In this document: piece by piece, positions 6,321-64,000 of the stretch
How the letters are laid out: the number at the start of each line of letters is the position of its first letter
Position numbering within the stretch: position 1 is the stretch's first letter
Assembly: GCA_001938485.1 (NCBI GenBank)
Contig: MQRK01224546.1
Location: 1 to 64,000 of the forward strand
Source: Girardia tigrina
Lineage: Eukaryota
Direction of reading: 5' to 3'
DNA: 64,000 nt
Notes under the pieces: generated by a model
What the model was told of the DNA's origin: nothing
The model's input: the letters and a program-made list of their open reading frames with translations, nothing else
Database searches by the model: none
Program-made: the position numbers and the translations under genes

Positions 6321-6848
6321 GGATCATTCCAGCTCTGATCTCAGCACAATTTGTTCAACATTTACCGGGCACATCTATAGCATCCGCCCTGCTAAACTGA
6401 GATCTCCATATATTGGATCGGCTGAAGTTAATGAGAAACGTTTAAATAACGATCAATTGCAGAGACTCTATACATGCAATCCAAAGGCATTCATGGATAT
6501 CATTCGACCTAAAGTTAAAGCTACTGCAAAACCTTCTCCGCAGGCTTTTACTGATAATGTAAATGAACACAATCGTGCTACTCTCTTTGTTCTAGACTCT
6601 TGATTGCCCTATCTCTCGTAAAGCTGAGTTTGATTTCCAACCTCCATCCAGTATTAAAATTGTGAATTGTCTTCAGTCGAAGGATAAGTCTTCACCCGGC
6701 CAAAGTGGTATCTCTTACAAAGATATCCTCTATTGTGACCCTGAAGGGATAATTTGCGAGAAAATCTTTTGTATGATCTTAAAAACCAAGACTGTTCCGA
6801 CTGACTTGAAAACATTTAGCCCTCTTATGATAACAAAAGCTGATAAGA
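6321..6848 (+). mobile_element. Internal fragment of the NeSL-like element (inverted copy of ~15633-16158)
   Basis: Near-identical peptide DHSSSDLSTICS...ATLFVLDS...KDILYCD to ORF 15732..16319(-). Confidence 0.9.
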
Positions 6849-12899: not shown

Positions 12900-15800
12900 A
12901 CATCTAACACAGATAGGAGTGTGTCATGAAGTTCTAGTATGAACTCACAATTCGTCTACAGAATCTTCTTCGTCTAACAGCCCCTTCCTGGTGTAGAAGA
13001 GTATCTCTAGGATTGTGTTTAGAATCACGAAACTCCGACAAGTCGTGGGCATCACGTCCATCACAAAAGGATTTCCACATTCTTGCAGACCATCGGATGT
13101 TTGATCGGACAGAGGCAATTGCAATGACCTTTTTCTCTGCCTGATAGGAAAACGGCAGCTAGTGGTTTGTTATTGGCAGGGATCCATGTGCCAAGCGCAC
13201 CTACAACAAATGTGTAAAGCAAAACTGTGTGATCACGGTATTTATCTTTAATTGCATCGCGGAGACGCTTGTACTTAGCCAAGTTGTCTCTGTTCGCGTT
13301 GTCCAAGTTCTCCTTCTCATCAAATGGACACTTCCCATTAATCAAACTATTCGCTTACGATCCAGAAAGAACACTTGCAAATCAACCCTCAACGTTGAAT
13401 AAACAAACCTGCAGGTGACATTTACATACAATTCAGCATTGCAATACTCTTGGATTTTAGTCTTTAAAATGTCAACCCCCGTGTGAGCATTTATATAGGC
13501 CTGAAGAGTATCGCAATGAGAAACAACATGAGCCAAAGTCTCATTGTAGCCTCTACACTTACGACAAACAACAACTTTCTGGTAACGGCGTCCAACTTGA
13601 AGTGTATAGGACCGACTACGATGAACAAAATCACATTCAAAGTAGGACAGACGACTATTGAAAACTACAGAAGTTGAGAAACCAGAAAGAGAGAGAAGAG
13701 GTGGAATGACCAGCACTAGTTTGCTTCTTCTAGTACAGTCCGTCGCATATTTATTAGAACGGATGAAATTTGATTGAAATATTTGAATTTTAAATTTTTC
13801 AATAAATAATTATTTCAAGGTTAAATATATTTTAAATTTAACAAATTTCATTTACAGGTATCTTGTTTTAATAATATGTTTAAACGTTTATTATTTAAAT
13901 TCATTTAATATTCATTAGAACGATTTTATATTTAATTTATTTGTAAATATTATTTGTGTTTATATTATATAATTCAGGTTAGATGTATGATTTAAATATT
14001 TTTATTTATTTTAGAAATTATTATGAATCATGAAATTGAAATATTAAGAGATAGGCAAGCTGAAATGTCGTTTGGAAAATTAGCTAAAAATATGGAATAG
14101 TAAAGTCAGATACCCATTATATTGTTAACTCTAGTGAAAACGAAAAAAGAAAGACTGGACCAAAAGAAAAATTAACCAAAGGCGATAAACGAAGGATCCA
14201 AACCGTTCTCCAAATGAAGGCTACCGAAAATGCTAAATGTTCAAGTAATGACGAACTAATGGTGGAAGAAACCTGATACGATTCATTCTGTAAAAAAATG
14301 GAGATAAGAAGAGATGGATGACTGTCACCAAATTTGACGGTGATCCCATATTTCTCATGTAGAATATGGATTACATGTTGGATTTTATTCCACCAGGATC
14401 CAACAGCCGATTGTTTATAACCCGTATTGATCCAGTCAAGGATACTTACACGACTCATCAGTTTTGAGACATGTCGCAAAGTAATTCGAGCAGCTTCTTT
14501 CACAAAGATATCAGGTGATGTTAGAAGGTAGTATGAGTGTGTGACTCATTGCACAAGATACTCATCAAATGTAGATGTAAGACCTACTCCCCCATGAACT
14601 TTGAAAGAATACAGGTAACCGCTAGAAGCTGATACATGAAGACTTAACAGTTCTTTGTACTTCATTCTAATCAGAACATCCCGACCTGTTGTAAAAGCAG
14701 TCAGATCTGGAAACGGAATGTAAGTGTTACGAAAGTAAAACACCATTTTAGAATGCACAAAGGTCTGATAAGCATGAAATTTTTGAGAAGGAGAGAAAAC
14801 AGAGTTCTTCAGAATCTCAAGATCATCAAGAACATTCTTAATCACTTGTTCCGGAGTGTGACGAAGAAGACGGGAAATAAAACAACCCAAATAAACATAA
14901 CCTTCATCAGCCTTTTTGTGTGGAATCGGTTGATCATCAATTGTTTTCATGATATGGAAAGTCCATATAGGCACACTTTGAACGTCGGAACTCCGTACCA
15001 GTGAGTTTGATATACTTCGAAGCAGTGTTAACCAAAGTTTGAAGAGCAAAGCTAGATGTGCCAAAGAGAACTAAATCATCTGCATATGCCATACAAGAAA
15101 TGGAAGTTTCACCCATCCGAACTCTAAGAGGGAAACCTAACGATAAAGCTTATTTAAAATGGGGTTATACCGATATTAAATAGAAGCATTGAGAGGGGGC
15201 AAACCTATCGAACACCAACATTCATTGCAAGACGGTCAGTACTTTGACCTTTACAGACGATTTTAGTGTGACAGTCGCGATACAGTTCCCGAATTATTTC
15301 AATAGAGTTGAGACGAAGGCCCATTTTGTCGAGGACGAAAAGGATATATTCAACAGAAATAGTAATCAAAAGCCGCCGCAATGTCCATGAAGGAAAGATG
15401 AAGCTCAGCTTTCATACCATTCGTATAATAATCAATGATGGCACGAAGAAGAAAAGTGTGATCAGTACAACCATTCGCTGGACCAAGACTTTTCTGAAGA
15501 GGGTGGAGCAGGTTGTTCTCTCGTGTCCAATCATTAAGCTGCCAGTAGAGGAGAGTTGTAAACAACTTGTACAAACATTCCTGAAGTGTAATTCCCCGTC
15601 AGGAGGATGGAAGATGGTATTCACCCTCCTTATCAGCTTTTGTTATCATAAGAGGGCTAAATGTTTTCAAGTCAGTCGGAACAGTCTTGGTTTTCAAGAT
15701 CATACGAAAGATTTTCTCGCAAATTATCCCTTCACAGGTCACAATAGAGGATATCTTTATAAGAGATACAACTTTGGCCGGGTGAAGACTTATCCTTCGA

Positions 15801-18800
15801 CTGAAGACAATTCACAATTTTAATACTGGATGGAGGTTGGAAATCAAACTCAGCTTTACGAGAGTAAGGGCAATCAAAAGAGTCTAGAACAAAGAGAGTA
15901 GCACGATTGTGTTCATTTACATTATCAGTAAAAGCCTGCGGAGAAGGTTTTGCAGTAGCTTTAACTTTAGGTCGAATGATATCCATGAATGCCTTTGGAT
16001 TGCATGTATAGAGTCTCTGCAATTGATCGTTATTTAAACGTTTCTCATTAACTTCAGCCGATCCAATATATGGAGATCTCAGTTTAGCAGGGCGGATGCT
16101 GTAGATGTGCCCGGTAAATGCTGAACAAATTGTGCTGAGATCAGAGCTGGAATGATCCCGGATAATTCTGACAATTCTGACAGAGTCACAGCGAGTAGAA
16201 GTAGTCGGGTGAGGATTGAATTTTGGCTGATGATTTCGCAGAACAAACTTTTGAGTAAAAGTACGGATGGTGTCCATGTTAATCCGATTATCAAAAGAGA
16301 CACCTGATAAATTTCTCATGTATCCACAGATAAGAGATCAACTGTCAATAAACTTGTAGGAAGTGACTATATTAGGTGGAGAGTCAGAGTAAACCATACT
16401 GATAAGACAAAAATTAGAGCAGAATTGGGTGAATTTATCAATAATTGATTCATATATAGATAGTTGTTGGAGGCCAATCGGATCCCAAATGGAGATTGTG
16501 TTAGAGATTAGATCAGAAGCGACAAAAATCGACCATGTCTGACGGCAAAACAGAGGGTATATAAGTTTCTTTTTATGAGCAAGATCTCTAAGACAAAGGT
16601 TTTCCATAATAAAGTCTCGGTTCACGACAGCGATGGCTCTAGAGAGAGTGGATGGGACGACAAAAACATCCTTACAGTTGATTGACGCTTCAGCAAAAGC
16701 ATCCACATGTCGGTGAGAGAATGAAAGGAAAGGGAGAAGGGAAGCGCTAGCAGGACCATTCCCAATGTCATCCGAAAAGGTGCAATTTTCCAATGAATAA
16801 ACAACTTTATGAATCAACAATGCCGATATATCCAAGTTGGAGCCAGGCACAACATGGTTGTGGTCCCTACAGAAGTTCGTATATACATTAGTGAATCGTT
16901 GAATAAGAGAGCAAGGTTTTAGGGAGGTAAAGAATTCAGAGAGGACCTGGGATGAGTAAACTGATCGTTGAGGACGGTCAGTAACAAAAGTGCAGAAAAG
17001 TTCAACAACAGAATCATCAATAATTTTTTCACCACAAGCAGCAGATTCCCGTAGTTTACCTATAGCTTTAGTTCTGTCTATTTGACGACCAGCCGATTTA
17101 GAAATAGAGGAGTAAATCGAGAATTTGATTAAGAAGGATTTGACGTTTTCTTCAGAAAGAGGACTGGTACAATCAGCCGAAGCAACTCAAAAGACTCGGA
17201 AAAATTCCATGTAAGGTTGGATGAAGAAGCCTTCAGATTTTATAAGAGAGTTACAAATTTTAAAGAAGGATTCCTTGTCAATGAATTTAAGCTTAGGAGA
17301 CTTAATCGGAGCCTGTTCATGACCTGATTCCAAATCAGTATTAGAGGTAACATCAAAGGATAAATGTTTGAAAAAAGAAGTAAAGGAGAGATTCGAGAAA
17401 AATCCACAGTTGCTGAAGACAAAATGAAAAGTCATAAAGGAGACAAAAGCAGAGAACAAGTTTGTAACAGTAGGAGTGGAAAAATGATTCCTTTTCTTGA
17501 AGGTTTCAATTCTTGCCAAAAACGATTTCTTATTAATGAAGTCCGATTTGCCATTAAGGATATTGAATTTAATAGGTTTATATCCTAAGCTAGTAACGCA
17601 GCTCAACATAGTGTCCGAAAAGATACTATATGACTCAAAATTAAATTTACTGCAAACAAAATTAGTGAACCGAGAAAAGCAATACTGATTGATAATTAAA
17701 GGAAGACGCCTCTTCAAACAGTATCGATCAAACGCCTGGAGAAAGTTTCCATAGTATAACAATTTTATCATTGAACCGATTGGTAGCAGTGCTGTTATTA
17801 GAGAGATAGGATGCAAAAAACTGCCTAGAACACTATTTGAGTAAGGACCCATTAAGGTGAAATCAATATCTAAGCAAGTGACCGCAAGAATTTTGTATAG
17901 ATAGCTTCAGACCAAGTGAACTGAATTTTATTCTTTTTTGAGAAGATAGACAGTTTTTGTTGAAGTCTCGTATTATTAATCTTGATCTTCCTACTGTTAA
18001 ATATGTTAATAGGGTAGCTAATCGCAAGATAATGAATGAATTCAAGAAAAATTTCATCATTATCAGGAAAAGGATGATAGATATTTTTAAAAAGCAAAAA
18101 GGCAAGGAAGCTGTCAACCACCAGATCAGTTCCAAACATGAAAAACCCGTTTCTCTGAGCAATAGAGGCATATTTATCTAAAGAAGCGACATGATCAAAT
18201 GAAGACAGTTCACCATTGGCAGATACAAAGGCAACTTTGTCTATATTCGTTTTCAAAGTGGAGAGATGAATTTCTGTAAACTTTTGAAGAGTTGGATCAG
18301 AGAAGATATCTTCAGGATTACAGCTATATTGGCAGGTAATAAACCGCAGGAAGATAGAGAAATTCTGATCCGAGTCCAGAGAGATGTTAATGGCCTTTCT
18401 TATAAAAAATGAGGAGAATGATAATGAGAAGGAGAGTTTATTAACACGCAAAGAGCCACCATTGAAGATATTAACTCCTTCCTCCATACAAAAGAAATGA
18501 AAAAATTCCTCAAAAGTTTTGTCAGGGAAAACATCAATAGAATTGAAATCAAAAGTAGAAGATAAAAAATGCACAAATCTAGTTTTCACCACAAATCTAG
18601 TTTAAAATTTCCCGCATTCCAAAAAATCGATTAAAATAATTGAAAAAACTTTCTTCACATATTTGGTTAAAAAGAGAGAGGTGCTTATTAAAAATAAATT
18701 CCTTTGGCTCCGTTGCAGTCACTTTCAGGTGAGGGACAGAGTCCTTCACTCTACCGGTTTCCCCCATCGGATCCATCATTCTCACACTTCCGTCAACATT

Positions 18801-45959: not shown

Positions 45960-48900
45960 AATTGTCTTTCAATTATCTCATTTGTGTTATGGTGATATGG
46001 ACTAGAGAAAATTAATTCGATACTTTTTGCTTCCAACATTTCTTTTACTTTATTCGCATAGAAACATTTCCCGCAGTCTACATGGATCTCTTTTAGTGTT
46101 CCAAATTTTAATATCCATTTCTGTAATACCATTTGTACTATTGTCTCTTCATCTTGTCTTTAAATTGCTGTCAAGCTCACATATTTACTGAAATGGTCAA
46201 TTATTCCCAAGATGTATCTTTCTTTTCTTACTGTCTCATTCCATGGTCCGAATATGTCTATATAAACTTTCTCAAATATTTCTGACGTTGTTATTTTTAT
46301 GTTTTCTTTCTTTGTCTTTGTGGTTATTATCTTTGTTCGTTGACACTCCATGCATGATCCTAGCACCTCTTTTACCGTTTTCTTTTCTTCTTCCATGTCA
46401 AACTTGTCCCTCAGATATTGGTATACTTTTTCGGCTCCCGCATGGCACAATAATCTATGTGTTTGTATGATAAAATCGCTTCTTTTTTCTTTCGGTATCC
46501 ATTCTTTCATACCCACTCGGGTTTGGCTCCTCGTAGTCACTGCCAATAATCTCGTCTTGTTTTTTCCTTTTTTTTGCTTCTTCGTGTTCCATTTGGCATT
46601 GTGTACATGTGTCGCAATTCTGTCTTGATAACATATCAGCGTTGCCGTGCAGTACTCCCTTTCTGTATTCTATTTCGATATCCAAACTACTTAAGTAATT
46701 AGTCCACGTTTGGAATTGAGCCGTGAAGGGTTTCTTTGTGTATAAACCCTAATTTCAATACTATTATTCTGTCTATATATGTACTATTTAGTAATTAATC
46801 AGATAAAGTATATTAATGTATATTATACTTGTATTTTATGTTTTACTATCTTTATATTACTTTTTATTATATTTATTATGTGTAATTTTAATTTATAATT
46901 TATGTATATTATATTTATTGGGTTCTCGATCAAAAGACATTATCATGAATACAAAAATTTATTTCTATAACAATTTGAATTTTTTAAACAAATATTTTTG
47001 AGGAACTTTTGTACTTTCTTTTTTACACAACCAATATAAATAAAAATAGATATAAACAAAAATATGGTTAGTATATTTTTTATAAATTAAAATTCTATAT
47101 TTTCTTTAATAAAAAATTATAGTGAATTAAAATCTTGTCACAAAGATTTTGTTGCATCTTTTATTAATTTTTCAATTTTATGGTACATTTAAATTTACCT
47201 GTTTCTCAATTACATTTTCCCAAAAAAATTAAAATCGCATTTTTTATTTAAGTCGAGTTAATGGTTTTACAATTATTTTTTAATTCCTGTGGTGTTCAAA
47301 AAAACACAAAAAACAATTTAAATTAAAATTCAAAAATTAACAGAATAAACAAAAAAAATAATGTTTTGTTTTACTAATCAAAAAATTGGCGAAAAACTCA
47401 AAAACACACGAATCCACAAGAACACCAACCAGAATCGCAATCAGTATACTCAACGGACTGTCAATCGTCAACCCAACTATGCCCAGACGAGACTCGTGGA
47501 TCTATTCCAATTATTGTGTCGATTCGGGTCAAGTATTCGTTTTATACATCAATAAATTTTATATTCCAGTCGTGTCTTATTTCTTCCCGTTCAAACGACG
47601 GAAGTTGGTGGTGCAAATTGCACTCGCCAAAATTCCCATTTTAATTTCCAAAAGAAATTATAATTACTTTTCCAAAAAGAATTATAACCACACTTTTAAT
47701 TTACTTTGATTTAAAAGTTACCAAAATGGTTTAGTTTACTTTAATTTCGCAAATAAAATATCAAACTTAAATTACCTTTTATTTTATTTCAAATAAATAT
47801 TTTCATCAAATTTGAAATTAACTTTTTTTACTTTATAATAAATCTTTACATAAATCTTTTAACAACCCTACCGTAAAATTTATTTTATTTCTTACATAAA
47901 TTAATTTTATACATTAAATTTCTGAAAATCTTATTTTAACATATGTATAACAATATTTTACGGAATGTAATTGCTTTTTTAATAATTTGATAAGATTCAA
48001 AAATTGTATATTTTATGAACGCTCCCAACAATATTATTCTTAATTTTAATTTTATAATTATTACACGCTTGACTACATTAAGTAGTCAAGCCAATATTTC
48101 AATTTTAAAATTTAAAAAAAATCATTATTAAATTGATTAAAAAAGAAAATCATTAAATAAATTATCTTTAAGACTTTCTAGCGTCTTTCATTTTGCCTTT
48201 TTCACAACCTGAATTTTATGTTATTTACAATCAACTATTCATTATCATTCATTTTTTTCCTCAACTGAAGAAACTGCTGCATTAGCTTCACAAACGATAA
48301 TTGCCATCCAATTTAAAATACTCGATATCACATCAAATCAGTTCAACCGCAATTTGCAATTCCAACTTCTTGTGCACATCGAAGCTGAAAATTGTTGTTC
48401 ATTGACGATCAAATTTTGACGTTCAAAATTTTATTGACCAGAGACTCAAAGGACAATTTTGTAAAGTATATATTCATTGTTTTATTTTTTTTTCTTCCAT
48501 CAGCTCATTTCTCTTCTTCTGTGATCTATATTCATTGTCTTCTTTTTCTCTTTCAATTTTACTGGTTGTGAATTATATATTATTAATATAATTTTTATTT
48601 TTGATTATTATCTCGTAAGTAAAAATTACTTCAAGTTCCTAAATCCGAACTTTAGTTAATTTTTACACTTTGCATGAAACATGAACGTTATAGCTTTATT
48701 ATCCGTTCTCAATTTAAATCTCTTCCCGTACAGATGATGGTTGAAATGCTGGCAAAAATAAAAAATTGCCAAAAGTTCTTTTCTTGTTATGTAATAACCT
48801 TTTTCATGTGCTGATATTGAATGTGATCCATATGCTATTACTTGCTCTTTCCCCGAATCACTTATTTGTGACAGTGCCGCCCCTATGGTATCAAAACTGA

Positions 48901-49450
48901 CATCTGTATCTAGAATAAATTGTTTTTCGAAATTTGGGAAGCTCAGTATTGGTGCCGCTAACAGTGCTTCCTTCATGTCCTTAAACTCTATTTCGCATGC
49001 ATCTGTCCAGATTAACTTTTCTTTATTTAAACCACACATTCCTTCTAATACTTTGGCTTTCTTTGCATATTCTTTAATAAACATTCTATAATAGTTGCAA
49101 ATTTCTAAAAAAACTTCTCAAATTCTTAATACATTTCGGCCTTTGAAAATTCTCTATCGCTGCAATCTTTTCTGGATCTGTCTGTATCCCTTGGTCATTT
49201 ATTATGTGTCCCAGAAATTTTACTTCCGGTCGTAACATCTTACATTTCACTGGTTTTATTCTTAGTCCTGTTTGTTGGATCCTCTCAAATACTTCTCTTA
49301 TCACCTTGTAATGTTCTTCCTTTGTACTTGTCGCTATTAGTATGTCATCCAAATAAACCGATACCCCTTTCTTTATTGGTTGTAAAACCTTTGTCATTAG
49401 TTCTTGGAATGTTCCTGGGGCTGCGGCTATGCCAAAAGGCATACAAAGCT
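45960..49450 (-). mobile_element. Gypsy pol remnant (RT-RNase H-integrase) split by an AT-rich insert at ~46742-48685
   Basis: MPFGI..APGTFQ, VYLDDILI, LDTDVS, KELLAI, NADMLSR, HRLLCHAG..CMECQ, VYIDIFGP, HVDCG, IIERQF. Confidence 0.9.
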
Positions 49451-49670
49451 TCAAATCAAACAAAGCTTCATGAATCGCCTAATGTACCTAGTGATCAATC
49501 ACAAGTACCATGGTTACTGTAACCAAGATACATAACCTTTTATTTTACATGTAAAAGCCTATGTAATACCTAAAACATGCATGGGTATTCTACACCAGAA
49601 GAATCATATATTCATTTTTTTTATTTATTTAAAGTAACACATTAAAACAAATAATAACTTTAAAAAACAT

Positions 49671-50200
49671 TCATTTCTTTGAAATATAATTTTGACACAA
49701 CGCTAAACACTTTTTATAAGCACAGTGTGAACCATGTTCACGATTTATACAAGTAATGTTTTTTGGTATCGCTTTTAGTTTGTCACATTTATATATACAT
49801 ATTCTCAGATCAGGAAATATAGACTTTATCACCTTTTCCTTTCGTCCATCATCATTATCCTTAACATAAAACAATGCTTCAGCTAAATTACATCGTGATC
49901 GAATGTCTCGCATTAGACAATCCTGACAAAACCTGAAATTGTGTTCTTGCCACGTCAATTTATGATGATGTAATGTTAAATAAGCATTTTTTCTTTGTGC
50001 TTTGTTTGAACAGCAATGCATTTTAAGTCTAGAAATTACACCCAAACATTTTATTTCATTTGCAACACTAATTTAACTTACTGAAATACATAATGTAATG
50101 GATTAAACATATTGTCAACAGACATTATACACAACTCTTTAATCATGTCCTCATCATTATTAACCACAAATCTTTCAAAATAAATAAAGAAGATAGACAT
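49671..50200 (-). pseudogene. Polinton accessory ORF, DEDD-exonuclease-like with C-terminal Cys/His cluster
   Basis: MSIFFIYFERF..IKELCI, HKLTW, FYVK..K, C...H..HCA; frameshifted. Recognised by motif resemblance only. Confidence 0.5.
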
Positions 50201-50238
50201 TTTTCAACAATAACAATTTATTAACATAACAACTTTGT

Positions 50239-50612
50239 TTATAACAATTGGCGTTTGAGCCAGTCTATACAATAATTTCCACAAAGAAATGCTAATGGAT
50301 TTTGATACATTACATAATTATATATGACAGGTTGTTGCATTCGTTCCAATTTTGTTACCAACGTTGATGGGTAATACATCCCAAGGGGATCGAATACTCG
50401 TATAAGATCTGAAGTCACATGTACTGCAATCCAGTGTTCTGATGGTAAATTAGCAGTCTGAGTATTAATTACATATCCTCCATCGAGTAGATAATCTGGA
50501 ACTTTATCCAGCGAATATACTACACGGAATTGAGGATATCCTTTCGGTGCTTTTTCAATCTGATATGTACTATATATATAAATGTAAAAGGTTTAGATAC
50601 AACTTACTTCAT
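50239..50612 (-). CDS. Adenain-like cysteine protease, 111 aa, with a 38-nt intron (50570-50607)
   Basis: ATG AA|GTAAGT...TATAG|T ACA gives MNTYQIEK; then VINTQ..PSEHWIAV, FDPLG, YQNP..FLCGNYC (His-Asp-Gln-Cys). Open to TAA. Confidence 0.88.
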
Positions 50613-50658
50613 GTATTATTTCTGTTCGTAATTGCTGTTTTTAGTTCTAATGCTGTGT

Positions 50659-52928
50659 TTATACAATAACTGTACCATCTTTTCGTATTTGTATCTCACT
50701 ATCAAATACTCCATATACATACATTGTAATTGCATTATCTAATGCCTTATGGAATCTTAAATCCAATTTTAAATTGCCTGTTCGTGGCATTTGTATTTGA
50801 TCAACATGAAAATCAGGTGCCAAGACAAATGTAAAGAAGGGGTACTTTGTTTTGAAATCATCCATAGTGATTCCATTATTCATATTTTTATTCACGAATA
50901 CTATGTTCAATATTATAGACTTGTAGTACGCTTCAGTAAGATCATTCTTTTCAAAGTCAATTTTATATGAATCTCTATAATCAATTCCTCGAGATATGGT
51001 TAGGGAGCTAATATTACAGTTGTCAAATGCAGAGCAATATGTTGCGTAATCTCAACTAACTTCTTTACTATCTTGAAATGTTACCAATACAAATTTTGGT
51101 AAATGTTCCTCACTAAACAGATTGTCCTTGTATTCACCATGTGATCCTTTAGGAATTGAAAATTAAACAATTCTTGCTTTTCGAATGGGATATATAGCAT
51201 TTTAATTATCAAGACCCATAATATGAGCCAACAACTGAATCTGTTGTACGAACACGTCGTATTAATAACTTTGTACTCTCAATATATATTTGAGGCTTAA
51301 TCCCTGTTTCAGTACCAGTCTTTTCATATTGAAAGATAACTTTACTTTCATTTCGATGAATCTTGATTGTTATATTGACATTTGGTATGAGATATTTTGG
51401 CTGCTCAAAGAAGTCCAGATTTAACGGTCCGCATAATGTCATCAAGGCTGATTTATGCAACCATTTGAATCTTTCAGTTGCATCACCATACCTCATGGAC
51501 TTGAGAAACGTATTCTTCGTATCTGAACTTAAATTTAATGTAGTCTCAATGATAGTCTTTTGATAATAACTATCATTAGTGTCCTCAATCTTTGTATTAT
51601 TGAGAAACAAGGTCATATCTTTAAATAAGCAATGAAAGAGGTAATTGCTCGGTGTTAATTTTGTAATGTCAACAGTAATGTCTTTTCCTGATTCATCAAC
51701 TGCTTTTATTTTAATGGTAAGCATTATATAATTCATATCAATGTATTCATCTTCACTACCGATAATATCAAACTCAATATGAGATTTATTATACTCACTA
51801 ATACTATCTTTGGGGTTGTTGCGGCAGCAGCGCAGTGGAATGTCATTTTTAGACCTTCCACGAGTCATCCAGGGAAGATGAGTGCATTCGATAGCGTTGG
51901 TGTCTAATTTATTATTAGCATCTTCGATTTTATTATTATTATTATTTTTATCTCTATTATTATTATTATTGTTAATTTCATCTTTATTGTTTTTATTTTT
52001 ATTATTTTTATTTTTATTAATATTTTTACTATTATTTTTATTATCATTTTTATTATTATTTTTATTTATTTTTATATAAATATATATAATAATTACACAA
52101 GGATATACGTTCATTAATCGTCCGAAAACACCGACGGACTTTGGAATATATGAATACTTGGTCTTTCGTTCGCAATTATTGGAACCACTGATGAAATAAT
52201 CTTGTTGAAACAATTTCCCAAGATTCGAATTCAGAGCGTAATCGAGAGTGGTACTATATAATTCGACCATGACGCTGATTGACACACACTCTCCATGAAC
52301 TCCCGAAGTAACGTATACGTAAATTCTCTGTAATTGCAAATCACTGTCGCTTTCATGAACACCAGTGGTCGGTTTGACACCATGTTCGTTGGTGATTATT
52401 TACCAAAACTTCGTCCTCATACTGTTTCTACAACTTTGAAATATTGTCATTAATTTATATCATTTATCATGAATTTCTTCACAAAATTTGATATGCAATC
52501 TCCGATCGAGAATTATTACATGATTATTTTCAAATGTCTTTACAAAATAATCCACATTAAAAATATAGTCGAATGGCATGAATAATGTTCTTAGATAATA
52601 ATTGAAATCAATATCTCTCGTATCAAATTCTTTTATTATTATTTCATTTTACAAATATAAAAACAATATAAAAACGAATATAAAAACAATATTAAACGGT
52701 TTAAACAAAACGTTAATTTCAAATATATCTATATATAACCATCATTAAATTAAATTTAACTTTTTTGTAAATAACATTTTCTTTTAAAAAATGAAAGAAA
52801 ATATTTAACTAGAAATTTATTTAAAGAAACGAAACCGAACAGGGGTAAATATCTTCAAAAGCATATGATTCTATAACAACTTGTGGTGGAGCTGGACTAA
52901 ATATGTCCAATTCCGATTTAGCACTCAT
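50659..52928 (-). pseudogene. Polinton major capsid protein (double jelly-roll, PY), interrupted
   Basis: MSAKSELDIFSPAPPQVVIE..IYP | KDS..IEFDI..EYIDM, PSNYLFHCLF, LNLDFFEQPKYLIPNV, AIYPI, FVLAPD, GNLKLDLRF. Solo-LTR insertion and frameshifts. Confidence 0.88.
51817..52841. mobile_element. 1025-bp solo LTR (TGTT...AACA, 5-bp TSD GGGGT; BEL/Pao- or Gypsy-type)
   Basis: TSD at 51812-51816 and 52842-52846; removal restores EDIYPKDSISEY. Confidence 0.85.
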
Positions 52929-52930
52929 TC

Positions 52931-53313
52931 TCAGAATATGGTTTTCATACGTTTTGTTTCTTTGTTTTTATCTAAACCTTTTCATTTTCTTCCTCCACCA
53001 CATTGATCCATTATTGAAATGGCTTCACGAAAAGCATCTTTAGCATTAGATTTAATTTCTGGTAAAATCTCAGCAGCAGCTTCCTTCAATGCTTCAACAG
53101 TTTTTTTAGTACGATTCAAGACATTTTCATCAGCACGTAATATTGCTTTACCAGCAATCTTTGCTACATGTATACCAAATTTTATCATTATAGAAATTGC
53201 ATATCTACCTAATGTCGCCTTCCAATTACCTCATACTGTTTATCTCTAAAGTATGGAAGATTACCACCATGTAGAGGACCACAATACAATTGTACAATAT
53301 CTCTATCAATCAT
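52931..53313 (-). pseudogene. Polinton core/pVII-like basic protein
   Basis: MIDRD..LHGG^NLPYF..QY (adenain (M/L/I)xGG^x site), amphipathic helix, QCGGG plus basic tail; frameshifted. Confidence 0.65.
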
Positions 53314-54354
53314 GTACTTTCTTGAAATGTAAAGTTAAAATAGTTTTTGCTCCTAAACTAATCTCAATTGGTCTCCCACTATCATCACGAATATTTACTT
53401 CAATTTTGTTTATACATGTGGATGAAATAGGTAAATACATGGGAACAACTGGTGCAAAATATACTGGTTCTCCATGCTTGTGTTTTGAAGCATCTATCCA
53501 AATACATTTTAAAAGAGATACTCGATCTGATCCAACCATTATTGGCTCTACATTAGTAGAATAGATGAATATAGTAGAATATTTGATTGAAGGCATTATT
53601 CAATTTTATTGGGAATACACCTTTATCATCCTTGAGATTGAATTCAGTTTTTGTAAAACCTAAAACCATTGCTAAATGTTTATCAAAAACAGCTTTCTGT
53701 ATATAATCTTGGAATTTGAATGATAAAATATTATTTTCTTCCAATTTGATGGTCTTGAAAACTTTCTAACATTTGGTTTTGAGATGACTTTCAACTTTCT
53801 CACAACTGTTTAGATTTATATCATCTTTAAATACAAATGTTTCCCAAATGGAATCATTTTCAACTTGAACTTTTATGGAAAGCGTTGTATTCAAAACATT
53901 TTGTTCTAAAAGTTCATTAGCTGAATATGATATATATTCGTTTTGTTCCTTTAATACAGAATTAAATTTCAACTTGAAACCCCATTTTTGGGCTTCATTT
54001 TGATGTGCAAATAAAACCTCAAAAACATATTTTGATTTTATGTATAATCTTTTCTCATAGATACTTATCAATACCCATTTTAAGGTGTGAGGTTTCATTT
54101 CCAATATCATTCCTTTGCGTGATATTGAAACGGTTTCAGTTGTTAAACCATTGAAATTGTATAAATAATTTATATGTGTCCTTTCGTATTGTTGCAGGAG
54201 TGTAATAAATCAATACATCTATCATGGCTACCTGCCATATTCCTGTCAGGTTAATACTATTCTCAAAGTCTACAATGAATTTGCTTGCTTTGTTGTCTGG
54301 TTGAGTATCCGGACAGCTATTGCTAGGTAATACCATATAAAATGAATCCATCAA
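53306..54354 (-). pseudogene. Polinton minor capsid/penton (PX)
   Basis: FYMVLPSNS..PDN..F..INLTGIWQVA; IFIYST.VEP.MVG..LLK; IEVNIRDDSGRPI..TLHFKK; split across frames. Confidence 0.85.
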
Positions 54355-54439
54355 TCAATAATGTTTTCGAAATGTTCTTGATTTCGTTTATATATTTTAA
54401 TGAATTAATACTCACTTCTCAAATCATGTTAATACTTCA

Positions 54440-55463
54440 TTAATTTTTGATTATATATTTAGATGTAATCCAACTGGGATTTTTATACCCATGCCATTTA
54501 ACTAAATATTGTTTATATTCCCCACTACCTTTGGATTTGATGATTTTCTCAACTCTATATACATCGGGCTTTTCAGTAAGAACCTGTAATTCCTGTGTAT
54601 AGAACTTGCCTTGAACAACATCATCATCATCATCTATAATCTCATACATTACAGGCATTTGTCTTATATTTATTCCACTTATTCGAAAATCTTCATCCCT
54701 CCAATTATTGTTAAAGTTCTTGATAAAAGGTATCGTGCTTCCTTTACTGATACGAACATAGTCACCAATTTTATATTTAGGCCTCATATTTCTTTGCATC
54801 ACTCTGTAATGCGCTGTACATGTCATCAGTAACATCCACAGGACGAAGGCCCTTCAAACCTCGATGTGGAGTATTATTATATCCCTTGATAAGTTTAGGT
54901 AGGACCGTATACCATACTTTTTTACCAATATGTGTTACATATTTTGTAATCTTTCCTCTCAATGTGCGATTGAATCGTTCAATAATACATGCCTTATATG
55001 TTGAAAACACTGAATAATGTTTTATTTCATACTTATCGAATATATCCTTCACTTTACTATTGTAGAATTCGTTACTTAAATCAGTTTGTAGAAATTTAGG
55101 CTGAACACTTTTCATCATTGTTTGAATTGCAACAGCCAAGTCTTTGGCTGTTTTTCTCTTTACATGTACAGCACGAGCATATCTACTGAATACATCAATA
55201 CAGGTCAGAATATATCTGTACCCCTTATTGATTTTCGCATATGAAATCATCTCCATTAAATATATCTGCCAGATCCAATTGACTGACTTCGATAAGTACC
55301 TCCTCGTCGGGAATCTCTTCAATAATGGTTTGTTGAGACTGTATGCGAACTGCTATCTCAACCACTTGTCTGCCTCCATCTTGCTGGTCTTTGATACTTT
55401 TGCCATTTTTGATACGCTTCCGAAACCAACTGGGTCTTCGGAGTTAAACCATATCTTTTCCAT
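54440..55463 (-). pseudogene. Polinton retroviral-like integrase with C-terminal chromodomain
   Basis: WQIYL (first D lost), CIDVFSRY, QTDLSNEF, IERFNRTLR, YNNTPHR, GDYVRI, GKFYTQEL, QYLVKWHGY. Confidence 0.92.
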
Positions 55464-55556
55464 CAACACAACAGTTGCACTTAATATTAAATGCTAGATT
55501 AGGAAATGAAGACGTTGAGCCCATATCGAGCGTTTATATACTAATTCAATTACCGT

Positions 55557-56038
55557 TTATATTTGTTTATTAGCATTATCATCATTTTCAATAGCATCTA
55601 GTGCCTTTTTCGTACCATATGATATAGCTCCATTCGCAACTGCTGGAACAATAAAACTGGCAAGCCATTGAAAGAATGGTATTAAAGCAACTCATACGAA
55701 ACGATCACCGTCTTGATTCCTTTGCTGATTTTGTTTCTTTATTTCATGTAATACTTTTGCCCCAAAATAATTTGTCTTTGATTTTGTAGGTGGTATAGTA
55801 AATCTTTGATTAAGAATATGTAGTTTTGTTTTTAATGCCCTTGCTTTGAACATTTTTAGCAATGTATCTTGATACTTCTTCAAAGACCTTTTTTAATTGC
55901 CAATTTTTACATTGCCAGCCACAATATTCATCAGAACTTCAATGAAATCCTTCTGTACTTATGTAATAGATCCCATCTATTTTTTCCGCTTTTTAATAAT
56001 GCTTCAAAATATGGAATACTTCTAGTAATGTGCATCAT
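55557..56038 (-). pseudogene. Polinton small basic/core-like ORF
   Basis: Basic region, then QDGDRF..LIPFFQWLASF hydrophobic tail; lies between ATPase and integrase; disrupted. Confidence 0.45.
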
Positions 56039-56280
56039 CATCTATCAAATCTAACTGTCATATATACTGTTTATACCATGTCTGTGGTATTTTCTCAAAG
56101 TATTTTCGTGCAGCAATTATTTTTACTAAAGTTTCATAAATAAACTTTTGATTATTTGGTTGTTTTAAAGAAACTTTATTTGATTTCTTTACATTTAACT
56201 CCTTCGATTTCGTTTTAGAAACCCTCTTTGGTTTGATTTTAACATATACTTTTGTAAAATTCATAATTAATATATTTACA

Positions 56281-56610
56281 TCATAACTTTTGTTTATACA
56301 ATGTAATGTATTTAGTATGAAATAGATTTGTTTTTAGTCGTTGATCATCAGGACATTCTTGAGAAAAATCTATGAAAAGGTATTCATACGGTTTACATGT
56401 TGCATCCATGAATGAATCTATAAAATACTTCTTATCATGAAGAAATGCTTGTATAGCTAAATAATCAACTACAGTTTTATCTCGTGGATTCTTGAATATT
56501 ACCAAGTAATGAACATTTAAATTCCTCGTTCGATGATTACCTCCTTGATAAAAAAAGATTTTGAGTTATGAATATAACCATCACTTCTTTATGTCTGGAA
56601 ATTTTCATCA
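56281..56610 (-). pseudogene. A32-like packaging ATPase, C-terminal half only
   Basis: SRH..VIFITQNLF, LNVHYLVIFKNPRD, DAT.KPYEYLFID, RLKTNLF; no Walker A/B upstream. Confidence 0.85.
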
Positions 56611-57628
56611 AGATAATCGCATACACAAGGACCTTTTTGTTTGAATCGTCTATTTGCTCAATTTCAACGTCCTTTTGATCAGTTTCATCCTTTGAAATAG
56701 CTTCCAATCTATTTATTTGTTCACTTTCATCCTCATTGTCTGAATTCAAGAGTGGTGTAACTTCTTTGCGTTTTGCTACATCATCAAGATAATTGCACAC
56801 ACAAAGCCCTCCTTGAATTGAAGTGTATATTTGCTCACTTTCATTCTCATTTTCTTCAAGAATTGTGTCTATTCGTGGTTCAACCACAAAAATTGTAGTA
56901 TTGTCCATAGTTTAGTGTACCGCATATATACTGTATATCATGATTTTGTTTATATTATTGTTATTAACATATACTATAAAAATAAAAACAAGGTGTACAA
57001 TTTGAAAGTTATGTATCTTGGTTACGGTAATCATGGTACTTGTGATTATACTTGTGTACATTAGATGATTATACAGATGTTATGTATTATATTGTTGTAT
57101 GTTTGAAGTACAATATGAATTTTTACATGTAAAATAAAAGGTTATGTTTTGGTTACGGTAACCATGGTACTTGTGATTGGTCACTAGGTACATTAGGCGA
57201 TTCATGAAGTATTGTATAATGGTCAATAACACGCATATATCATATGGGTTTCATATATATACGAAAAAATCAATTTTTGAGCAATTTTTTGAAAATTTCA
57301 GAAATGTTCGAAAAAATCAGTTTATCAGAACTTTTTCGAAAATGTTAACATGGAATCTAAATGTACGTATATGGGTTTCTATTCAAGTACATGAGCATTT
57401 TTTTGATATTCTGCTTTCTTGTACCTTTAAAATTGATGTGCACTTTGAGCAAATTTGCACATTATGCTTATTATATAGAAAAATAATCAATATATGAAAT
57501 TTCTAATTGCACATTCAGATAAAGAATCAAAATTGGCATCAAACACATGATATCGATTTTTGACACTTGTACTTTTAAAAAATTTTATGTATTGATTTTT
57601 GCATTTTTGCACATGTACAACTTGAAAA

Positions 57629-57765
57629 GCACTGTGCTAGCACATTAGAAATGTGCGGCACAGTGTGCAATATTGATTAGCACTTTAAAAATATCGATTA
57701 GCACATCTGGGCACTGTGCAGGGATCGATTAGCACACCTAGACACTGTGCAGAGATCGATTAGCA
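57629..57765. repeat. Imperfect ~31-bp tandem repeats (CACTGTGC...TCGATTAGCAC)
   Basis: GATTAGCAC four times and CACTGTGC three times. Confidence 0.85.
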
Positions 57766-57798
57766 CTTTTTTCTACGGTCCCTAGTGGTAGGGTCACG

Positions 57799-58069
57799 GT
57801 TGCTACGGATACGGTAACCGTTACCATGGTAACAACCGCCTTGGATCACTATCTCGGTTGCTAATGAAAAACTCCCTTGGTTACCGTTGCCATGAGAACC
57901 GAAACAGTTATTAAGGAACCGGGAACCAATCAGAACCGTTGCCAAGGTAACCGGAACCCTTGCTAAGGTACCAAGCGTTTCCAAGTGAACCGGAACCGTA
58001 GCTAAGGTGATCGGAACCGTTGCTATGGTGATCGCGACCGTTTCTATGTTAACCGTTGCTATGGAAAAC
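57799..58069. promoter_or_regulatory. Array of ~12 RFX X-box-like palindromes, mostly 21-bp spacing
   Basis: GTTGCTACGGATAC 57799, GTTACCATGGTAAC 57820, GTTGCCATGAGAAC 57886, GTTGCCAAGGTAAC 57938, GTTTCCAAGTGAAC 57977, GTTGCTATGGTGAT 58019, GTTTCTATGTTAAC 58040, GTTGCTATGGAAAAC 58055. Confidence 0.6.
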
Positions 58070-58149
58070 GACCTCCCCCCGGGGGGTCTTGTGTGTCGAA
58101 TGCCCATTTTTCCCATACTTTTGTTTATTGCGTCAAGTGTTATTAAGTC

Positions 58150-58530
58150 AGTCGAAAAAAATGAATTTGGGGGACTTCTTCATTTGAATTTTGCTCAATG
58201 TTGAAATGCAACAAAGAGAAAATTTATATATTTCGAGTACAAAAATTGAATTGTTGAACTTTCGAATATCCTCTGATCACCTTGACTGAGACAATTATAT
58301 TTTATCCATTCAAGTCAACTACTTTGCGACTGTTTCAGTTATCTACGCATCAGCACTTGCATCATCCAAAAGAACATTAATTTCGATTTTTTTGTTCCTT
58401 TCAAGAAATGCTTGGAGAGTATTCAAAACTACGTTGCGGTTTATGATTATGAACCCAACAGCTGGTGTAACTGAAATCGTTTCTTGATTATTCGATTCGT
58501 TGTTCTTTTTAAAGCTCTGTCTGCTGACGT
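58150..58530 (-). mobile_element. BEL/Pao aspartic protease remnant
   Basis: VVLNTLQAFL...INVLLDDAS..*ITETVA. Confidence 0.45.
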
Positions 58531-58552
58531 AGTAGAGTAGTGTAGAGTAAAA

Positions 58553-58755
58553 ATCCCAAAATGGGATAAAAACGGAAAATTCGGAGTTCCTGAACAATAT
58601 TAATTGAAAAAGATCTACTTATAAATGATAAGTATTTTATATTGATTTTTTATCTTGATTTTTAACTTATTTTTTTAATTAAAACTTTGTTGGCAAAGTA
58701 GAGTTCTGTCTGCATAAAGAATGAATATTAAAAATTTAATTTTATGATTTACTAG
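58553..58755 (+). repeat. Dispersed repeat copy 1 (Helitron-like 3' end)
   Basis: Homologous to 60292-60512; weak hairpin GGCAAA..TGTC, then CTAG|T. Confidence 0.5.
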
Positions 58756-58859
58756 TTATTTTAAACTTTAAGTCTTCTTTTATTTTAGAAAGCCCTAGAT
58801 AAAGACATTTTGCCACTCTATTCAAATTTCAAATAGATAAAAATATATCAAAAAATCAT

Positions 58860-60164: not shown

Positions 60165-60512
60165 ACGGAAATAAGAAACCTATTTTTGAAGGTCTCCTAC
60201 TCAATCAATTTTCTTCAAACTTTGCACACTTACTCATTCTCGATGATAATAAATGATTATGTAAAACTTTGATAGAAAAAAAATTTTTAAGATCCCAAAA
60301 TGGGAAAAAAACGGAAAATTCGAAGTTCCCGAACAATATTAATTGCAAGATATCTATTATAATTATAAGTAGTTCATATTGATTTTTAATATATTTTTAT
60401 AATTTAAATTTTTTAAATCTTAAATGTTTAAATTTTATAAACTTTGTTGGCAAAGTAGAGTTTTGTCTGCATAAAGAATGGATATAAAAATTTTAATTTT
60501 TTGATTTACTAG
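60132..60512 (+). repeat. Dispersed repeat copy 2 (non-autonomous Helitron-like), starting TC(TA)n
   Basis: 60292-60512 matches 58553-58755; ends CTAG|T. Confidence 0.45.
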
Positions 60513-61470
60513 TTCATTTCACTGTAAGTCATGCAACAGCTTGTAACGCTGAACGGCCCAGGGGCGGCCGCCATTTCTGGTAGTGGCAGTAAAATATTAG
60601 TAACACAAAAGTAAATTACTAAATGTCAAAGAATTTCATTCCTGACTCTAGTCTTAAGCGAAAAAATTAGAGCCACAATTGGCACTATTTGTCTTTTACC
60701 AATTCTCTGTCAACTTCTGTAGCAGAGTTGCCGTCACTGAATGACTATTTAATAGTTACTTATTTTGCTCATCCAACGATATGGTTCATAGATTCAAGTC
60801 ATATTCATTGTCATTCACGAGCGCAGAAGGGGATATGATGCTACTGAATTATTTTTTGGAAGTAAGTAACAATTTTCGAGTTGAGTAAATTTGAGTCAAC
60901 CATAAACGAATACATGTGAAATGTGGACAGTTGAATGGTGATCACGAATCATTTGAATTTTTAATGTTTGTTTTTCTGTAAATTGTCGTAGCTAACTTGC
61001 TAATATTTGTAAATTTTAACACAATGCATTTATCTTTTTATCGCGGGGCCGCTAGGCAGCTCCCTCTTTTGACTAATGGGTAATCCGGCACTGAATTCGT
61101 GGTAAATCTTCAGCATTAATTTCTGGTGTATTTCACATACAAAAAAAGAGGGTGGCAATGTCAATTAAGTCTCATTTTTTTATATTTATTCCAATAAATT
61201 AAATGTATCTCTATTTATTATATTAAATTAACAATACCTTTATTTAATTAACAAATATTTGATGTTATGAACTAATTAATTTGTTTCAACAATGAATATA
61301 TATTAAATATATTTATTAAATTCATACTTTTGTACTAAATTTACAATAATTTAATTTAACTAACAATTTTTTATTATTAACAAATTTTGTAAATACCTAA
61401 TTTGTTTTGTGCTCATTCGTCATCTAGAATACAGAGTTTTTTCCAGAATAAGTACAAAATAAAACTTTTA

Positions 61471-61508
<38 letters not shown>

Positions 61509-62979
61509 GTGAAGGACAGAGTCACTCTTAAAATTTTTGAAACAATAAATTTTTATAAAGAAATTCTAAAATAAGGAAATATTTAAAATCAAAAGTTTTT
61601 TAAGCAATTATAATTAAAAAAAATATCTTAATTATATTTTTAAAAAGTTAACTTCGGAAATAATCAAATTTTAATTGTAGAGTAAAAACTTACAATGAAA
61701 TTAATTGGGAAATAATGGATTTTTAAGTAATTGATTTAAAATAAATATATAAAGACAAGGATAATTACGTTTTTACTAATTTTAAAAGTTATTCTAACAA
61801 ATAAAATAATGACCTTTGTTGCCAGAGATATAAATTAAAAAAACAGATAATTTTAAATTTTAAAGTCAGTTTGAAATTCTGCAAATTAAAGATTTGACAA
61901 ATACTTAATTCTAAACAGTTTTCATAAAAAAATTAAAATTAAAACTTTTATCATTAATGTATCGTAATAATAATAAAAATTTGAATACTGTAAATTATTT
62001 TTTGTATTTAAAATGTTTATCTATATAAATCTATATTCGTACAAAGTGAATATAAATGGATTTAAAATTTCAATTTTAAAATAGCTTATCAGTATTTATA
62101 ATTCCATATTTTTATATAAGTCTGATCAAAAAGAAAACGAAGAAAAGTTCCTCGACGAAAAATTGTTATTTGTGTTAGAAATAAAATTTGGTGTTAATGA
62201 ATTATAATTTTGATCGAGAACCCAACACGTCCTATCTGGCAAATCATGTAGGTCTCTCATACTACTCTCATTTGTGACCCGTTTGCAGCTGTTACTCTCT
62301 GGTTTGTTTGTCGAAGTGCTGCTTCCAGATAATTTTACTGAAATTACATTCAATGCTGCTCATGTGTCCTATATAAATTCAATTGTTACTGTTATAATTG
62401 GTCGCCATAGTAGCTTATCATATTAAATCTGCTGTTCCTCCTTTAGTTATTATCACAATCTTTCGTATACCATCGTCCATTTCTTCTATGTTCAACTTCT
62501 TTACACACTGCAAAACGTTGTTTATTGTGACATGTAAGTTATATATGTGGCTATTGCTCGTACTATATTGACTGTTTCCCCTTACGTCCGTGTCGTTCTT
62601 TTCAGTTTTATTCACATTGTGTTCCTCATGTATTATCTCATCATTATTATAATTATCTTTGTTAATTTTTATGAGAGGTTTTAAGTTTCGCCAAAATAGT
62701 TTATTATTTTTTTTAATTTGAAAATTTAAAAGAAATAAATTAACAATTACAATGTAGAGTAAAAATATGATAAAAAATACTTATTTAAAATATGTTTACA
62801 GTAATAACAATTAACATATTTAAATAAAAGTTATAGAATAAGCTCAATAAATTTTAATTAACGGATTAATATTTTCAGAAATAATTTTGTAATAAAATGG
62901 TTATTGTAAATTTAAATTAATTAGTTTTATGATTAAGTTTCGTAAGAATGTAAAATTTGGTTACATTAAAAATTTGTAA

Positions 62980-64000
62980 ATTTTTTGTAAGAAAATGTAA
63001 ATTATTTAAGGGTAAAATTTTTGTAAAAAATATAAGATTATTTAAGATCAAAATATTGTAAAATTCTTTGTAAAAAAATATATAAGATTATTTAAGATCA
63101 AAATATTGTAAGATTTTTGTAAAAAAATGTAAGATTATTTTAGATTTAATATTGTAAAATTTTTTGTAAAAAAATATAAGATTATTTAAGATCAAAATAT
63201 TGTAAAATTCTTTGTAAAAAAATATAAGATTATTTAAGATTTAATATTGTAAAATTTTTTGTAAAAAAATATAAGATTATTTAAGATTTAATATTGTAAA
63301 ATTCTTTGTAAAAAAATGTAAGATTATTTAAGATTTAATATTGTAAAATTCTTAGTAAAAAAATGTAAGATTATTTTAGATTTAATATTGTAAAATTCTT
63401 TGTAAAAAAATATAAGATTATTTAAGATTTAATATTGTAAAATTCTTTGTAAAAAAATATATAAGATTATTTAAGATCAAAATATTGTAAAATTCTTTGT
63501 AAAAAAATATATAAGATTATTTAAGATCAAAATATTGTAAGATTTTTGTAAAAAAATGTAAGATTATTTTAGATTTAATATTGTAAAATTTTTTGTAAAA
63601 AAATATAAGATTATTTAAGATCAAAATATTGTAAAATTCTTTGTAAAAAAATATAAGATTATTTAAGATTTAATATTGTAAAATTNNNNNNNNNNNNNNN
63701 NNNNNNNNNNNNNNNNNNNNNNNNNNNNNNNNNNNNNNNNNNNNNNNNNNNNNNNNNNNNNNNNNAATATTGTAAAATTCTTTGTAAAAAAATATAAGAT
63801 TATTTAAGATTTAATATTGTAAAATTCTTTGTAAAAAAATATAAGATTATTTAAGATTTAATATTGTAAAATTCTTTGTAAAAAAATATAAGATTATTTA
63901 AGATTTAATATTGTAAAATTCTTAGTAAAAAAATGTAAGATTATTTTAGATTTAATATTGTAAAATTCTTAGTAAAAAAATGTAAGATTATTTAAGATTT
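62980..64000. repeat. 47-bp AT-rich minisatellite
   Basis: Unit AATATTGTAAAATTCTTTGTAAAAAAATATAAGATTATTTAAGATTT, about 20 copies, spans an N gap and runs off the window. Confidence 0.95.

Follow-up and report, generated by a model that had tools for sequence, protein, structure and literature searches.

A tandem array of twelve X-box-like units constitutes the outermost block of the terminal inverted repeat of a decayed Maverick/Polinton element in a 64,000-nucleotide stretch of Girardia tigrina DNA (hereafter the window, meaning the whole stretch that was analyzed). The array lies 51–320 bp from the element tip at 58119, and this terminal-repeat architecture is well supported. Its unit resembles the binding site of RFX factors, and we tentatively favor, at somewhat less than an even chance, a lineage-specific host-factor array that may recruit RFX dimers as an end enhancer of the element's genes. 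A host-factor-like array in an end repeat could provide a handle on what activates Mavericks, and in which cells.

The array and its immediate surroundings comprise the following features.

57799..58068, no strand: X-box-like array of twelve 14-mers, each with a GTTRCY half-site, a 2-bp center and a looser RGYAAC half-site (motif scan, shuffles, column counts)
57799, 57820, 57857, 57886, 57907, 57938, 57959, 57977, 57998, 58019, 58040 and 58055: starts of the twelve units
57820..57833, no strand: perfect palindromic X-box-like unit (sequence, motif scan)
57929..58046, no strand: regular part of the array, a 21-bp minisatellite of 5.8 copies (Tandem Repeats Finder)
58075..58086, no strand: C6G6 palindrome, 33–44 bp from the tip (sequence), skipped by some copies (joint 58042–58098)

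The original prediction described roughly a dozen imperfect X-box palindromes, one of them perfect, followed by a C6G6 palindrome, and we recovered all of these. A second unit, at 57938, also fits GTTRCY-N2-RGNAAC exactly. With at most one mismatch to this pattern, there are six sites in the 64-kb window, and all six fall inside the array. With at most two mismatches, the array holds 11 sites, whereas dinucleotide shuffles averaged 0.47 and never exceeded 4 (0 of 1000 reached 11) – a test that excludes a chance cluster and is blind to the difference between twelve selected sites and one site amplified twelve times. A motif related to the array unit was also said to lie in the inverted repeat, and we found such a weak X-box-like word at 57158, mirrored at 49504, with two mismatches in each.

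The claim that the array is helically phased did not survive. Unit-to-unit steps are 21, 37, 29, 21, 31, 21, 18, 21, 21, 21 and 15 bp; the pairs reported as exactly 21 bp apart are indeed so spaced, but this step accounts for only 6 of the 11 spacings in the whole array, and the other five correspond to 3.52, 2.76, 2.95, 1.71 and 1.43 turns, mostly off phase. Sites across the array thus do not share one helical face: phase coherence at 10.5 bp was R=0.42, a value matched by 41% of random placements that retained the 21-bp steps (P=0.41). Phasing in the array is only local and is set by the repeat unit, the 21-bp step being the unit length of the minisatellite. The 7-bp spacer of this minisatellite resembles a duplicated right half-site. 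Single-strand folding of 57790–58119 was no better than that of shuffled sequences (z=−1.04), and an Rfam search returned no match. A reverse-strand 139-codon frame across the array lacked a match in a Pfam search, and we regard it as a side effect of the repeat structure. A bacterial promoter scan gave fewer hits than chance and is irrelevant for animal DNA.

Inward of the array, we identified a set of broken genes that resemble those of L153, a 12.7-kb contig with the same gene order, 30–57% identity, a 1112-codon polymerase frame and a whole ATPase gene.

56290..56614, minus strand: packaging ATPase, C-terminal half only (corresponding to L153 residues 108–214), with a frameshift; a Walker A was not found
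54446..55454, minus strand: rve integrase with chromodomain, split over two frames
53318..54351, minus strand: broken gene in the minor-capsid position, similar to L153 7259–8305 and named from gene order
50665..52934, minus strand: predicted major capsid protein of the double jelly-roll type, broken, with ~1 kb of other sequence interrupting it
50257..50532, minus strand: gene in the protease position, 44% identical to L153 9858–10226
49680..50269, minus strand: cysteine-rich gene, the last before the left repeat, common to L153

All recognized genes lie on the minus strand and read inward from the array-bearing end. The integrase assignment draws on a Pfam rve match (E=1.3e-8), the chromodomain, and 46–47% identity to L153. 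For the capsid gene, a Pfam search returned no match; protein-atlas matches of 0.98 to double jelly-roll-like clusters, 11% of whose members carry the family, yield a call of moderate strength with a recognition score below the usual level, and the gene is 36–39% identical to its L153 counterpart. The ATPase half has Pox_A32 as its nearest named cluster (0.91) and is 53% identical to the Walker-A-bearing L153 protein. The gene labeled protease is likewise without a match in a Pfam search, and its putative identity comes from its place in the gene order and from its resemblance to further Polinton contigs.

We found no protein-primed polymerase B in the window by tblastn with two IMG/VR polymerases and the 1112-aa L153 frame, and residues 1–107 of the L153 ATPase were not found in the window either. 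Integrase, packaging ATPase and double jelly-roll capsid genes between inverted repeats are shared with described Mavericks (PMC8097293; PMC4028283), and by its gene content the element is a broken, polymerase-less Maverick derivative rather than an intact member. Besides the polymerase and the N-terminal half of the ATPase, some small L153 frames are missing from 49460–57005. Contig depth near the ATPase-to-repeat junction resembles that of the gene region, and from this depth a polymerase-less subfamily may have multiplied. Ty3/gypsy-type reverse transcriptase, RNase H and integrase pieces (48656–49478 and 46160–46669) adjoin the truncated left end. Other element types, judged by the end motifs of Helitron, Academ and CACTA elements, were rejected in view of the Polinton genes and the tip sequence TACT.

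The genes are enclosed by a long right terminal repeat and a short left remnant of it.

57005..58119, no strand: right terminal inverted repeat, ~1.1 kb, composed of tandem blocks (inner duplicate and 47-bp, 31-bp and 21-bp repeats)
57005..57215, no strand: inner terminal repeat, in which 57005–57070 and 57138–57202 are copies of a segment with a weak X-box-like word
57249..57343, no strand: 47-bp tandem duplication within the terminal repeat
57693..57766, no strand: 31-bp tandem repeat within the terminal repeat, bordering the array on its inward side
58112..58119, no strand: element tip ending in TACT (5'-AGTA on the minus strand), a Maverick-type end (contig ends, a joint and L153 likeness)
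49460..49556, no strand: left terminal inverted repeat remnant, 93% identical in inverted orientation to 57121–57215, its outer part (array and tip) missing
58120..58496, no strand: single-copy host flank past the tip (contig depth)

The array was originally placed beside a Polinton end. Its link to a Polinton proves firmer than that, since the array belongs to the terminal inverted repeat and lies inside the element rather than next to it. This placement follows from the mirror in the left remnant, a step in depth, ordered overlapping contigs, and joints. We compared contigs over 55500–58800 from four public sequencing runs: two from one organism (X1 and X2), which contain about half of the sampled words, and two small-share runs from two other studies (X3 and X4). 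Sixteen further runs, each with only a small share of the words, were left out of the comparison. The terminal repeat occurs in contigs of all four, in many diverged copies. In every run, summed contig depth rises at bin 56943 and remains high until 58052; in X1 it ranges from 2.0e5 to 1.3e6 in the genes and from 3.1e6 to 2.3e7 over 56943–58052, values that do not translate into copy number because each short contig enters the sum repeatedly. The surplus relative to the genes nevertheless suggests that many derivatives lack genes or that arrays are longer. Past the tip, at 58275–58496, depth falls to ~190–290 in X1 and X2, and X3 and X4 reach zero.

Contigs with 10–20% differences overlap in order (57149–57721, then 57724–57941, among 32 records listed of ~196,500), and joints span 57706–57768 and 57910–58098 (among 15 listed of 439). 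Copies skip 55, 66, 84, 113, 226 or 231 bp, so array length differs between them. In both X1 and X2, contigs almost identical to the flank have their first position at 58091; with words of 31 letters, this places the last shared base near 58119–58120, and one joint departs at 58119. The 6 bp after 58119 do not occur in 49301–49480, a comparison for a target-site duplication that is limited by the loss of the left tip. A separate observation concerns another high-copy repeat, two copies of which lie at 58497–58800 and 60289–60519, the first 380 bp past the tip.

Vertebrate Mavericks are described with ends of the form (AGT)2...(ACT)2 or (AG)3...(CT)3 and repeats of 46–1447 bp (PMC8097293). The window repeat is within this size range and has an AGT...ACT-type tip, although its terminal AGTATG differs from (AGT)2 and this copy lacks a polymerase. 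Its outermost block is an X-box-like minisatellite, and no such block is described for Mavericks in the literature searched. Maverick particles are reported as not observed in the same account (PMC8097293).

Consistent with the predicted likeness to RFX sites, the array unit is a good match to the published specificity. RFX factors are described as binding GTTRCY as monomers and GTNRCC N0-3 RGYAAC as dimers, with one half stricter, an asymmetry noted for RFX2, and with a specificity conserved from fungi to animals (10.1101/2022.11.11.515474). The array unit shares the inverted half-sites, the 2-bp center and the one stricter half: over the twelve units, 67 of 72 positions agree with the motif in the left half-site and 53 of 72 in the right one, counts inflated by the choice of units through the motif itself. 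Among the most variable columns of the box are the left half-site's Y and the free center. Two of the twelve units match the published X-box form exactly and four are within one mismatch. The arrangement differs from that of usual X-boxes, of which a promoter has one or two nearby, in that twelve tandem copies sit in a mobile-element end. Among random 21-bp units of the same composition, 0.17% contain such a site, a suggestive figure that is not decisive once the many recognizable motifs are allowed for; given some hundred known motif classes, the match would no longer be rare.

Other copies provide further comparisons, made by eye. Loose ends of copies at 57735 and 57872 carry further or better X-box-like words, and at 57806, the one array position among the 40 of 384 cross-copy differences listed, ~99% of depth differs from the window copy, toward the usual box center. 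The expectation that boxes would be more conserved than spacers did not hold within this copy: over the six units joined by 21-bp steps, 36 of 42 spacer positions are conserved vs 66 of 84 box positions. Twelve units from one amplified ancestor are also not equivalent to twelve independent sites.

We favor the RFX-recruiting array on the basis of its position in the terminal repeat, the fit of half-site and X-box, and precedents from adeno-associated virus (AAV) and adenovirus. RFX1 and RFX3 are reported to bind the D sequence within AAV's inverted terminal repeat, with RFX1 knock-down cutting vector mRNA by 54%, and this sequence and the EF-C/EP sites in the enhancers of HBV (hepatitis B virus) and of polyomavirus exemplify an RFX-type site in the end or control region of a DNA virus (PMC5760533). 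Adenovirus ends are described as carrying NF-I/NF-III sites (PMC6141750). The AAV, HBV and polyomavirus sites are single, experimentally tested and from mammalian viruses, whereas the predicted array of the window is amplified and belongs to an endogenous element of invertebrate type. Sites for host factors, among them RFX, are already known from the end repeats of viruses.

Under this reading, one X-box with a duplicated half-site would have been amplified by slippage into 15- and 21-bp units, the 21-bp step being a by-product of unit length. Host RFX dimers would then bind the amplified boxes, and the multiple sites could raise transcription of the inward-reading genes or perhaps help replication. 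Such action might proceed from both ends of intact or polymerase-less copies, as with adenovirus and AAV ends. Of the terminal enhancer originally proposed, the Polinton linkage and the RFX-site match stand, and AAV offers a precedent for RFX binding to a viral inverted terminal repeat; array-wide phasing, conservation of box over spacer within this copy, and conservation in related Mavericks find no support. The proposed link to germline cells does not follow, because RFX1 is broad and RFX factors work outside ciliated and sperm cells too. RFX2 and RFX4 are described as testis-rich, RFX3 as acting in ciliated cells, and RFX1 as broad (PMC2533330). If RFX acts on the array, this high-copy repeat family would also scatter RFX site clusters across the host genome; if it does not, the array is an ordinary terminal minisatellite.

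The principal alternative, which we consider unlikely though the most credible of the competing readings, is that the tandem blocks of Maverick ends are neutral or merely structural and vary by lineage, the outermost one here happening to resemble an X-box. Three other tandem blocks in the same repeat lack an X-box match, array length varies among copies, and the spacer is as conserved as the box. Half-site asymmetry and variation at tolerated positions, on the other hand, fit RFX, contigs from three studies retain the unit, and the inner repeat also has a related word, though a weaker one.

The ends of related elements bear directly on this alternative. In two contigs we identified what are probably the right ends of Mavericks, each with tandem blocks, a TACT-type tip and, no more than 50 bp from it, a palindrome.

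L153:11270-12295: probable right end, its last 17 bases similar to the window tip
L163:12990-13234: probable right end

We also observed a Polinton-like IMG/VR contig that starts (L004:1-170) with four copies of the palindrome TGACGTCA, a GC box, and 15- and 22-bp repeats – a CRE/ATF-type array at a possible Maverick end. This array of a different host-type word speaks in turn for the host-factor reading. Instead of X-box units, the probable L153 and L163 ends and the L004 start are made of 138-, 63-, 24-, 43-, 22- and 15-bp tandem units, as a neutral minisatellite would lead one to expect. Allowing one mismatch to the published form, we counted zero sites in all three end regions, compared to 4 in the window repeat and 0.4 in shuffles; conservation of the array in related Mavericks is therefore not supported. 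The palindromes near the L153 and L163 tips differ in sequence from C6G6, and the near-tip palindrome seems to be kept by position rather than by sequence. From these three end-like regions, tandem blocks and a near-tip palindrome appear to form a common plan in which the X-box unit is lineage-specific. The array was also absent from 10 IMG/VR contigs with related integrases, most of them without ends, and none of 33 contigs from metagenome-assembled genomes (L152–L184), again mostly without ends, had more than two sites within two mismatches per 300 bp. These 33 contigs carry Polinton-type integrases in genomes classified as bacterial by GTDB, several with capsid, ATPase or polymerase genes as well, and very likely represent eukaryotic contamination.

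Surveys of X-box repeats elsewhere extend the comparison. Single-protein integrase and capsid scans of viral contigs yielded no matches; a strict two-box pattern matched 0 viral contigs, and a looser pattern matched 23, none with Polinton proteins. Scanning 7 of the 64 parts of a metagenome collection for two tandem cores identified 118 distinct loci, none similar to the element by blastn and none with Polinton proteins. Among 107 non-redundant two-core loci, 21 bp is not a favored step (13/107) and the full box is present in only 8, which is again compatible with a neutral minisatellite; the scan had no scrambled-motif control, and we therefore make no claim that X-box minisatellites outnumber other minisatellites. 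Eleven long frames from nine of the metagenome loci encoded one GPCR and nothing else recognized. Animal-type DNA unrelated to the element (L025, L027, L039, L045, L061, L063 and L065) contains X-box-like tandem repeats as well; these loci and L108 are minisatellites with an RFX-type core and 15–22 bp units, unrelated to the element.

Less probable still, and improbable in our estimation, is that proteins of the element itself (integrase, packaging ATPase or a partner) recognize the units, which would form a near-tip packaging or integration signal. Adenovirus A-repeats are the closest model: they are described 220–400 bp from the end, paired 21 bp apart and bound by the viral proteins IVa2 and 22K (PMC5033970), and the array, at 51–320 bp, shares with the end region of this related virus class (PMC6141750; PMC5033970) repeated short sites within a few hundred bases of the tip and some 21-bp steps. 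An integrase and an ATPase of the A32 type are encoded by the family, and a polymerase-less copy would need only its cis ends for mobilization. The two end regions have no sequence likeness, however, and A-repeats are non-palindromic and lie outside the inverted terminal repeat. Relatives with ~50% identical integrase and ATPase lack such units, which a conserved viral reader should need, and the match to a host motif would be a coincidence.

A broader version of the RFX reading, which we regard as quite improbable, is that RFX is a host key repeatedly acquired at the ends of unrelated DNA elements. The X-box would then have been amplified into a Maverick terminal enhancer active in RFX-rich cells such as spermatocytes, with other lineages carrying other host words there (CRE in L004). 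If true, RFX would be the first host factor to be named as an activator of Mavericks, and heritable spread would have a route.

Very improbable is that the array is a separate transposon or satellite that landed beside the Polinton: summed depth over the repeat is ~10 times that of the gene region or more in all four runs, so that many copies of the repeat probably lack these genes, and the left-end mirror covers only 57005–57215. Yet the depth step falls at the inner edge of the mirrored segment rather than between that segment and the array, other copies yield contigs with an ordered overlap across 57149–57941, the tip is TACT as in L153, and gene-less derivatives and longer arrays could account for the extra copies.

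X-box arrays in the ends of Mavericks are not described in the open-access full texts that we searched. Passages from two texts (PMC11464507, PMC4408798) describe no RFX sites in Polinton or transposon ends; RFX4 motifs are reported in mammalian piRNA clusters (PMC4408798), and RFX7 is named as one of the factors increasing the expression of transposons in mouse cells (PMC13144441). A stress-protein exon has an oyster protein, at 42%, as its only named close match. Two further repeat structures lie elsewhere in the window. Inverted arms of ~530 bp (6321–6847 and 15629–16158), 97–99% alike, flank a 9.8-kb interval that contains a transposase-like piece and a reverse transcriptase-like insert, and a 47-bp AT-rich satellite of ~21 copies (62976–64000) runs off the end of the window.
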